47,404 nucleotides of DNA from Escherichia coli (GTDB lineage Bacteria; Pseudomonadota; Gammaproteobacteria; Enterobacterales; Enterobacteriaceae): the NCBI RefSeq assembly GCF_003334335.1, contig NZ_QOWQ01000035.1. One strand, written 5' to 3'. The notes beneath the pieces are model-generated. The model worked only from the letters and a program-made list of their open reading frames with translations. It was not told the DNA's origin and did not search any database. The translations under genes were made by a program, and so were the position numbers. This document shows positions 44,107 through 46,254 of this stretch, in pieces (within the stretch, counting starts at the first letter, position 1; every line of letters begins with the position of its first letter).

Positions 44107-46254
44107 ATGAAAAAAGTCGTCACGGTTTGCCCCTATTGCGCATCAGGTTGCAAAATCAACCTGGTCGTCGATAACGGCAAAATCGTCCGGGCGGAGGCAG
44201 CGCAGGGGAAAACCAACCAGGGTACCCTGTGTCTGAAGGGTTATTATGGCTGGGACTTCATTAACGATACCCAGATCCTGACCCCGCGCCTGAAAACCCC
44301 CATGATCCGTCGCCAGCGTGGCGGCAAACTCGAACCTGTTTCCTGGGATGAGGCACTGAATTACGTTGCCGAGCGCCTGAGCGCCATCAAAGAGAAGTAC
44401 GGTCCGGATGCCATCCAGACGACCGGCTCCTCGCGTGGTACGGGTAACGAAACCAACTATGTAATGCAAAAATTTGCGCGCGCCGTTATTGGTACCAATA
44501 ACGTTGACTGCTGCGCTCGTGTCTGACACGGCCCATCGGTTGCAGGTCTGCACCAATCGGTCGGTAATGGCGCAATGAGCAATGCTATTAACGAAATTGA
44601 TAATACCGATTTAGTGTTCGTTTTCGGGTACAACCCGGCGGATTCCCACCCAATCGTGGCGAATCACGTAATTAACGCTAAACGTAACGGGGCGAAAATT
44701 ATCGTCTGCGATCCGCGCAAAATTGAAACCGCGCGCATTGCTGACATGCACATTGCACTGAAAAACGGCTCGAACATCGCGCTGTTGAATGCGATGGGCC
44801 ATGTCATTATTGAAGAAAATCTGTACGACAAAGCGTTCGTCGCTTCACGTACAGAAGGCTTTGAAGAGTATCGTAAAATCGTTGAAGGCTACACGCCGGA
44901 GTCGGTTGAAGATATCACCGGCGTCAGCGCCAGTGAGATTCGTCAGGCGGCACGGATGTATGCCCAGGCGAAAAGCGCCGCCATCCTGTGGGGCATGGGT
45001 GTAACCCAGTTCTACCAGGGCGTGGAAACCGTGCGTTCTCTGACCAGCCTCGCGATGCTGACCGGTAACCTCGGTAAGCCGCATGCGGGTGTTAACCCGG
45101 TTCGTGGTCAGAACAACGTTCAGGGTGCCTGCGATATGGGCGCGCTGCCGGATACGTATCCGGGATACCAGTACGTGAAAGATCCGGCTAACCGCGAGAA
45201 ATTCGCCAAAGCCTGGGGCGTGGAAAGCCTGCCAGCGCATACCGGCTATCGCATCAGCGAGCTGCCGCACCGCGCAGCGCATGGCGAAGTGCGTGCCGCG
45301 TACATTATGGGCGAAGATCCGCTACAAACTGACGCGGAGCTGTCGGCAGTACGTAAAGCCTTTGAAGATCTGGAACTGGTTATCGTTCAGGACATCTTTA
45401 TGACCAAAACCGCGTCGGCGGCGGATGTTATTTTACCGTCAACGTCGTGGGGCGAGCATGAAGGCGTGTTTACTGCGGCTGACCGTGGCTTCCAGCGTTT
45501 CTTCAAGGCGGTTGAACCGAAATGGGATCTGAAAACGGACTGGCAAATCATCAGTGAAATCGCCACCCGTATGGGTTATCCGATGCACTACAACAACACC
45601 CAGGAGATCTGGGATGAGTTGCGTCATCTGTGCCCGGATTTCTACGGTGCGACTTACGAGAAAATGGGCGAACTGGGCTTCATTCAGTGGCCTTGCCGCG
45701 ATACTTCAGATGCCGATCAGGGGACTTCTTATCTGTTTAAAGAGAAGTTTGATACCCCGAACGGTCTGGCGCAGTTCTTCACCTGCGACTGGGTAGCGCC
45801 AATCGACAAACTCACCGACGAGTACCCGATGGTACTGTCAACGGTGCGTGAAGTTGGTCACTACTCTTGCCGTTCGATGACCGGTAACTGTGCGGCACTG
45901 GCGGCGCTGGCTGATGAACCTGGCTACGCACAAATCAATACCGAAGACGCCAAACGTCTGGGTATTGAAGATGAGGCATTGGTTTGGGTGCACTCGCGTA
46001 AAGGCAAAATTATCACCCGTGCGCAGGTCAGCGATCGTCCGAACAAAGGGGCGATTTACATGACCTACCAGTGGTGGATTGGTGCCTGTAACGAGCTGGT
46101 TACTGAAAACTTAAGCCCGATTACGAAAACGCCGGAGTACAAATACTGCGCCGTTCGCGTCGAGCCGATCGCCGATCAGCGCGCCGCCGAGCAGTACGTG
46201 ATTGACGAGTACAACAAGTTGAAAACTCGCCTGCGCGAAGCGGCACTGGCGTAA
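44107..46254 (+). CDS. fdhF: formate dehydrogenase H, selenocysteine-containing molybdoenzyme; in-frame UGA at 44524-44526 decoded as Sec
   Basis: Two collinear in-frame ORFs separated only by a TGA codon; N-terminal Cys cluster (CPYCASGC); total 715 codons. Confidence 0.95.
44527..44570 (+). other. SECIS mRNA hairpin immediately 3' of the fdhF UGA
   Basis: cacggcccatcggttgcaggtctgcaccaatcggtcggtaatggc can fold as a stem-loop (ggttgcaggtctgcacc apex); position fixed by the UGA. Confidence 0.75.

Follow-up and report, generated by a model that had tools for sequence, protein, structure and literature searches.

The in-frame UGA at codon 140 of Escherichia coli fdhF and the SECIS hairpin that follows it

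A stop codon inside a long reading frame can mark a broken gene, the border between two genes, or a codon that the ribosome reads as something else. This question is raised by a TGA in the stretch of Escherichia coli DNA analysed here, 47,404 nucleotides in length and referred to below as the window. The window is a segment of the E. coli chromosome that extends from melB to yjcO, as judged by the annotated genes of matching genomes. The TGA lies within fdhF. This gene encodes formate dehydrogenase H (FDH-H), a molybdopterin (bis-MGD) and [4Fe-4S] protein that serves as the catalytic subunit of formate hydrogenlyase. The UGA and selenocysteine feature of fdhF has been known since the 1980s. 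Programmed recoding of UGA to selenocysteine in bacteria has its founding example here, and recognition of the case therefore matters for annotating fdhF as one intact gene rather than as a pseudogene or as two genes. The answer reached here is almost certain: the region is the textbook E. coli fdhF, one intact gene whose UGA codon 140 does not act as a stop but is read as selenocysteine by means of a SECIS element. Both UGA and SECIS are already known, and no new biology is learned from them. The features discussed are collected in table 1.

Table 1. Position of features in the window, counted from its first nucleotide.
Feature	Position	Strand	Remarks
fdhF CDS	44107..46254	+	ATG at 44107; 715 codons and TAA ending at 46254; single internal TGA; PDB identity, TIGR01591, RefSeq annotation
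First piece of fdhF in the mechanical list	44107..44526	+	139 aa
Codons between the two pieces	44527..44574	+	16 codons, HGPSVAGLHQSVGNGA
Second piece of fdhF in the mechanical list	44575..46254	+	559 aa
UGA codon 140, recoded as selenocysteine	44524..44526	+	frame position; X at 140 in PDB chains; TGA140 of the literature
Full SECIS region (RF01988)	44519..44573	+	basal 5-bp helix, lower interrupted stem, upper stem-loop; cmscan, MFE, pairing
SECIS basal 5-bp helix	44519..44523 with 44569..44573	+	encloses the UGA
Minimal SECIS, 17-nt upper stem-loop	44538..44554	+	GGUUGCAGGUCUGCACC; nt 15-31 from the U of UGA; fold and published definition (PMC8659212)
Possible sigma-54 (-24/-12) promoter of fdhF	44040..44055	+	TGGCAT-N5-ATGCA; 52 nt upstream of the ATG
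phnE	20243..21030	+	phosphonate ABC transporter permease
phnE piece in the mechanical list	20180..20812		210 aa
phnG	21777..22229	+	150-aa ORF
STnc630 match (Rfam 'sRNA')	11561..11726	-	181.8 bits
pmrR	11568..11657	-	29 aa, LpxT activity modulator
naRNA4 repeats (REP/BIME-type)	17392..17668	+	six copies over the three regions
naRNA4 repeats	20144..20224	-
naRNA4 repeats	47042..47225	-

Translated in a single frame from its ATG, fdhF yields 715 codons with exactly one internal stop, the TGA, ahead of the terminal TAA. This TGA is codon 140, since (44524 - 44107)/3 = 139. The gene appears as two open reading frames in a mechanically produced list because the ORF tool, once it has met a stop, begins anew at the next ATG. 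The two pieces lie in one frame, since 44575 - 44107 = 468 = 156 x 3, and the 16 codons that join them are open in the frame of fdhF. The preliminary description of this DNA had named the gene, placed the TGA at codon 140 and held the pieces to be collinear, in frame and contiguous, and on all of these points it is borne out. With residue 140 filled in, the predicted protein agrees at all 715 residues (100% identity) with the solved E. coli FDH-H chains 1AA6, 1FDI, 1FDO, 2IV2 and 7Z0T. Solved chains (e.g. 1AA6_A) carry X, a non-standard residue, at position 140, which matches the TGA of the window. It is established knowledge that Sec140 ligates molybdenum at the bis-MGD site in these structures. 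The equivalog model TIGR01591 of NCBIfam (formate dehydrogenase subunit alpha) scores 1095.7 bits against a cut-off of 666.25 and aligns with residues 6-685. In the literature, the recoded codon goes by the name TGA140 (bioRxiv 10.1101/2025.02.04.636165).

The two pieces might each be a gene of their own, with a protein of 139 amino acids from the N-terminal part and one of 559 amino acids starting at the same-frame ATG at 44575. Such a start codon is indeed present. The 16 codons between the pieces are nevertheless open and conserved and fall within a single solved chain, the TIGR01591 alignment crosses the junction as one stretch, and homologues with a cysteine codon at the position of codon 140 run through it uninterrupted. 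The division into two genes is rejected on the strength of the open junction, the single solved chain and the unbroken cysteine homologues, and its probability is so small as to be negligible.

Alternatively, a nonsense mutation at codon 140 could have turned fdhF into a pseudogene. The mechanical list does give two pieces, and the window does contain a truly broken gene, phnE, which is annotated as frameshifted in a genome that is 100% identical here. Conservation of the locus bears on this directly. Many E. coli chromosomes share the DNA from 44000 to 46300 with 100% identity, and 5420 of 5426 complete genomes possess the region; from 22500 to 47404 the window matches strains FORC_081, A14 and NCTC9041 at 100% identity. 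The gene order mdtO-mdtP-fdhF-yjcO agrees with that of annotated E. coli genomes. Among the 5421 matching E. coli records, 5406 are at least 99% identical over the 71 nt that surround and include the TGA. A single variant was looked at, strain 14EC007, which has two changes within these 71 nt. Both are synonymous, and one of them turns a U-G into a C-G pair in the basal helix of the SECIS. The homologous codon is likewise TGA in 51 genes from Enterobacterales, Pasteurellaceae and one metagenome-assembled genome (MAG) of the Coriobacteriales, with open frames on both sides. The solved protein is full length with its non-standard residue at 140, and a SECIS lies at the correct distance from the TGA. 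Finally, RefSeq/PGAP records give fdhF as a single intact CDS of 2148 nt and set no pseudogene flag on it. By conservation, recurrence, structure and SECIS, loss of function through a nonsense mutation is effectively refuted, and we consider it extremely improbable. The RefSeq annotation also limits a warning in the preliminary description that gene callers will mis-annotate fdhF: this holds for naive ORF finders but not for RefSeq/PGAP, so that the risk of mis-annotation exists only with naive ORF callers. The product names given to fdhF in RefSeq records (H13 and H20 among them) vary between 'formate dehydrogenase N subunit alpha, selenocysteine-containing', although the protein is FDH-H, 'H subunit alpha' and 'subunit alpha'.

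Reading of the UGA as selenocysteine calls attention to the RNA that follows it. The 47 nt from the UGA onwards fold into a bulged, interrupted hairpin of -14.9 kcal/mol, with the apical loop GGUC at nt 22-25 counted from the U of UGA. A 55-nt version, which spans the full SECIS region, has an MFE of -19.7 kcal/mol and the same structure as the consensus of Rfam family RF01988 (SECIS_2). The hairpin that the preliminary description had proposed 3' of the UGA is thus confirmed in its fold, and the covariance model agrees: a cmscan search gives SECIS_2 87.1 bits, above its gathering score of 70 (E = 1.3e-17 over the whole window), with model positions 1-55 of 55 matched and zero non-canonical pairs. 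On the related model SECIS_3 the same element obtains only 35.8 bits, against a gathering score of 63. Published work gives the fdhF SECIS a length of about 40 nt, of which the 17-nt upper stem-loop at nt 15-31, 11 nt from the UGA, is essential (PMC8659212). In the window, the hairpin lies inside the open reading frame directly 3' of the UGA, and its upper stem-loop starts 11 nt past the UGA, in agreement with the published spacing (PMC8659212). The nucleotides that contact SelB are present: G23 and U24 lie in the apical loop G22 G23 U24 C25, and as to the bulged U at position 17, one of U17 and U18 is unpaired in the MFE fold. This stem-loop is the likely binding site of SelB. Binding of SelB and SelB-dependent read-through of the UGA are known from publications on the identical sequence (PMC4513850; PMC8659212).

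Stability alone does not set this hairpin apart. Its free energy is not better than that of dinucleotide shuffles (z = -0.94 for 47 nt and -1.23 for 55 nt), and 25-27 of 200 shuffles match its stability. Nor do the 55-mers of homologues with TGA and with TGY (TGC or TGT) separate by mean MFE, which is -18.8 kcal/mol in the former and -19.4 kcal/mol in the latter. Folding free energy is rejected as a discriminator on both grounds, the weak z-scores and the equal stability of homologues with a cysteine codon. A stable hairpin after the UGA had been suggested beforehand as a check; the hairpin forms, but the check is uninformative, since cysteine homologues are as stable. Because the energy is no better than chance, the claim that the hairpin is more than chance rests on the match to the RF01988 covariance model and on comparative evidence. 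For scans the methodological point is that the stability of a hairpin behind a UGA has no diagnostic value, since the cysteine homologues fold equally well. What discriminates UGA genes is a specific apical stem-loop, a fixed spacing and frozen synonymous sites.

The comparative evidence comes from a scan of one genome per species with a degenerate DNA pattern for CARV-[TGA/TGC/TGT]-HGP, which leaves the downstream sequence unconstrained. The scan gave 118 hits long enough to analyse, and 51 TGA and 59 TGY homologues entered the codon comparison. Six loci (L024, L035, L043, L052, L060 and L105) were removed as chance or out-of-frame hits, either with additional stops in frame or with a downstream peptide that does not resemble FdhF. 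Cysteine-type FdhF paralogues served as the negative control in the SECIS comparison. Such a paralogue (VCHGPSVAGLQETL) stands beside the selenocysteine fdhF in the same genome in many Enterobacterales (Enterobacter, Citrobacter, Lelliottia, Superficieibacter and Kosakonia), at loci that include L006, L009, L013, L017, L020, L026, L038 and L040.

These homologues allow a third alternative to be weighed, in which the hairpin arises by accident from the conserved peptide (HGPSVAGL...) and GC-rich codons, and read-through is independent of RNA structure. The energies given above favour it, both in the comparison with shuffles and in that with cysteine homologues, and the basal 5-bp helix forms in 86% of cysteine-homologue cells, so that this helix is mostly a by-product of coding constraints. 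Codon usage points the other way. In TGA genes the residues A-G-L-H at codons +6 to +9 (GCA GGU CUG CAC) use one codon each, with a synonymous entropy of 0, while flanking fourfold sites of the same genes vary freely at 1.2-1.6 bits. Cysteine genes encode the same peptide, S-V-A-G-L, and use 4-6 codons for each of the A-G-L residues (1.7-2.1 bits). The loop GGUC stands at nt 22-25 in 31 of 31 distinct TGA sequences and was found in none of the 62 distinct cysteine sequences, nor were all six upper-stem pairs formed in any of these 62. TGA sequences fit the Rfam structure with 18.1 of 20 pairs on average, cysteine sequences with 12.6. By helix, the paired fraction in TGA and cysteine genes, respectively, is 0.99 and 0.86 for the basal helix, 0.85 and 0.59 for the lower helix, and 0.92 and 0.51 for the upper helix. 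The part of the hairpin that discriminates is the upper stem, known from publications as the minimal SECIS. Over 32 distinct TGA homologues, pairing is found in 90.8% of cells, whereas controls with slid partners reach 23-49%.

Substitutions within the stem add to this picture. In six Pasteurellaceae rows, G15:C31 is replaced by U:A, a compensatory change that alters the amino acids from His-Gln to Leu-Lys and yet retains the pair. The strong conservation of the element leaves little covariation: two-sided changes occur in only two of the 20 pairs, a count that 251 of 500 shuffles reach. At its gathering score, SECIS_2 recognizes four of eight taxonomically diverse TGA loci and none of eight cysteine loci; the other four TGA loci, which are divergent (Pasteurellaceae, Budvicia and the Coriobacteriales MAG), score below that threshold. 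Published mutagenesis has found U17, G23 and U24 of the fdhF SECIS to be essential (PMC8659212). Codon freezing, the upper stem, the GGUC loop, the compensatory pair and mutagenesis together lead us to reject the hairpin as a by-product of coding, an explanation that we hold to be very improbable. The comparison of homologues shows instead a SECIS structure that is kept by selection at the RNA level, beyond coding constraint and specifically in UGA homologues.

Two further observations concern the periphery of this structure. The basal 5-bp helix, 99% paired in UGA genes, is already part of the Rfam model. It might add a function of its own, for instance by protecting the UGA against release factor 2 (RF2) or by setting the time at which the hairpin unfolds, although we think this unlikely given how often the helix forms as a by-product of coding. 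The distant TGA homologue of the Coriobacteriales MAG (L107, CAKUFZ010000017.1) reads V-U-HGPTVVGLIDTL and has GGUCUG spaced from the UGA exactly as in fdhF. Its stem differs (GUCGUC...GAUUGAC), and its score lies under the gathering score of SECIS_2. The spacing of GGUCUG in this homologue hints at a loop-and-spacing rule that extends across phyla and is largely known already.

Recoding of the UGA depends on factors that the window does not encode. No tRNA was found in the 47-kb window by the Rfam scan, and there is no sel gene among the annotated genes from melB to yjcO. The preliminary description had singled out the selenocysteine machinery as something to look for in the genome, and across the species it is present, so that its absence, named there as a ground for refutation, finds no support in the species data. 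Queried with a tRNA-Sec sequence, 5425 of the 5426 complete E. coli genomes yield selC, at places annotated as tRNA-Sec. With K-12 DNA as query, selA-selB and selD each match in 5426 of 5426. Both selAB and selD occur in strain 300709 with 100% identity to K-12, and the fdhF region of that strain is 100% identical to that of the window. Given this species-wide presence and the 100%-identical strains, the window's own genome very probably contains selABCD.

The course of events that would follow at codon 140 can be outlined from the literature. (i) Sec-tRNA(Sec) would be made from the selC tRNA by SerRS, SelA and SelD; SelA and SelD are described as converting Ser-tRNA(Sec) to Sec-tRNA(Sec) (PMC4513850). 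(ii) The SECIS hairpin just downstream of the UGA would be presented as the ribosome nears, and the C-terminal domain of SelB would bind the 17-nt apical stem-loop. (iii) SelB bound to the SECIS would carry GTP and Sec-tRNA(Sec). (iv) When the UGA arrives in the A site, this tether would place Sec-tRNA(Sec) with its UCA anticodon there. (v) There, Sec-tRNA(Sec) would compete with RF2, and selenocysteine would be inserted. (vi) Finally, Sec140 would ligate the molybdenum of the bis-MGD cofactor. The central steps correspond to the published account, in which SelB-GTP with its Sec-tRNA(Sec) attaches to the apical stem-loop and brings the tRNA to the A-site UGA in competition with RF2 (PMC4513850).

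Upstream of the gene lies a possible sigma-54 promoter. Transcription of fdhF is known to depend on sigma-54 and FhlA, with which such a site agrees. The candidate site has two mismatches to the consensus TGGCAC-N5-TTGCA, and a scan of the window that allows two mismatches shows no excess of such matches (16 found, 20.8 expected). Since the motif is not enriched, the promoter assignment rests on position and prior knowledge. This sigma-54-like motif is gene context and not part of the recoding signal.

Other features of the window are recorded here as observations in their own right. The gene phnE is an annotated frameshifted pseudogene in a genome that is 100% identical at this place. In the ORF list it is represented only by a 210-aa piece, and as a truly broken gene it forms a contrast to fdhF. 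For phnG, the window has an ORF of 150 aa, whereas the near-identical strain CP8-3_Sichuan (L125 21700-22215) is annotated with 171 aa, overlapping phnH; the gap in length points to a minor difference close to the 3' end or to another choice of stop. The Rfam 'sRNA' match STnc630 overlaps the coding gene pmrR, so that this 'sRNA' is a small-protein mRNA; the match also lies antisense to the 3' end of basS/pmrB. The six naRNA4 copies, three of them in tandem between yjdM and yjdN with a spacing of 100 nt, are ordinary intergenic repeats of E. coli.

The locus can be placed among known systems. The SECIS elements of fdnG and fdoG, which encode the other selenoproteins of E. coli, and the families SECIS_3 to SECIS_5, share the common principle of an in-frame UGA followed by a SelB-binding hairpin at a fixed distance within the coding sequence. 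The fdnG and fdoG elements belong to a sequence family different from that of the fdhF element in the window, and they have no detectable DNA likeness to it, because a distant-mode blastn search with the 71 nt matched one place per genome. The cysteine FdhF paralogues and orthologues of Enterobacter, Citrobacter, Serratia and others (VCHGPSVAGLQETL type) are of the same protein family and share the motif CARV-[U/C]-HGPSVAGL. They differ in having TGC or TGT for TGA, in lacking both a conserved GGUC loop and a complete upper stem, and in synonymous sites that vary freely. With fdhF of E. coli K-12 and its Sec140 (RF01988; 1AA6, 1FDO, 2IV2, 7Z0T), no difference was found: the protein, the SECIS, the gene order and codon 140 are all the same, and the window carries the same locus in another strain of E. 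coli.
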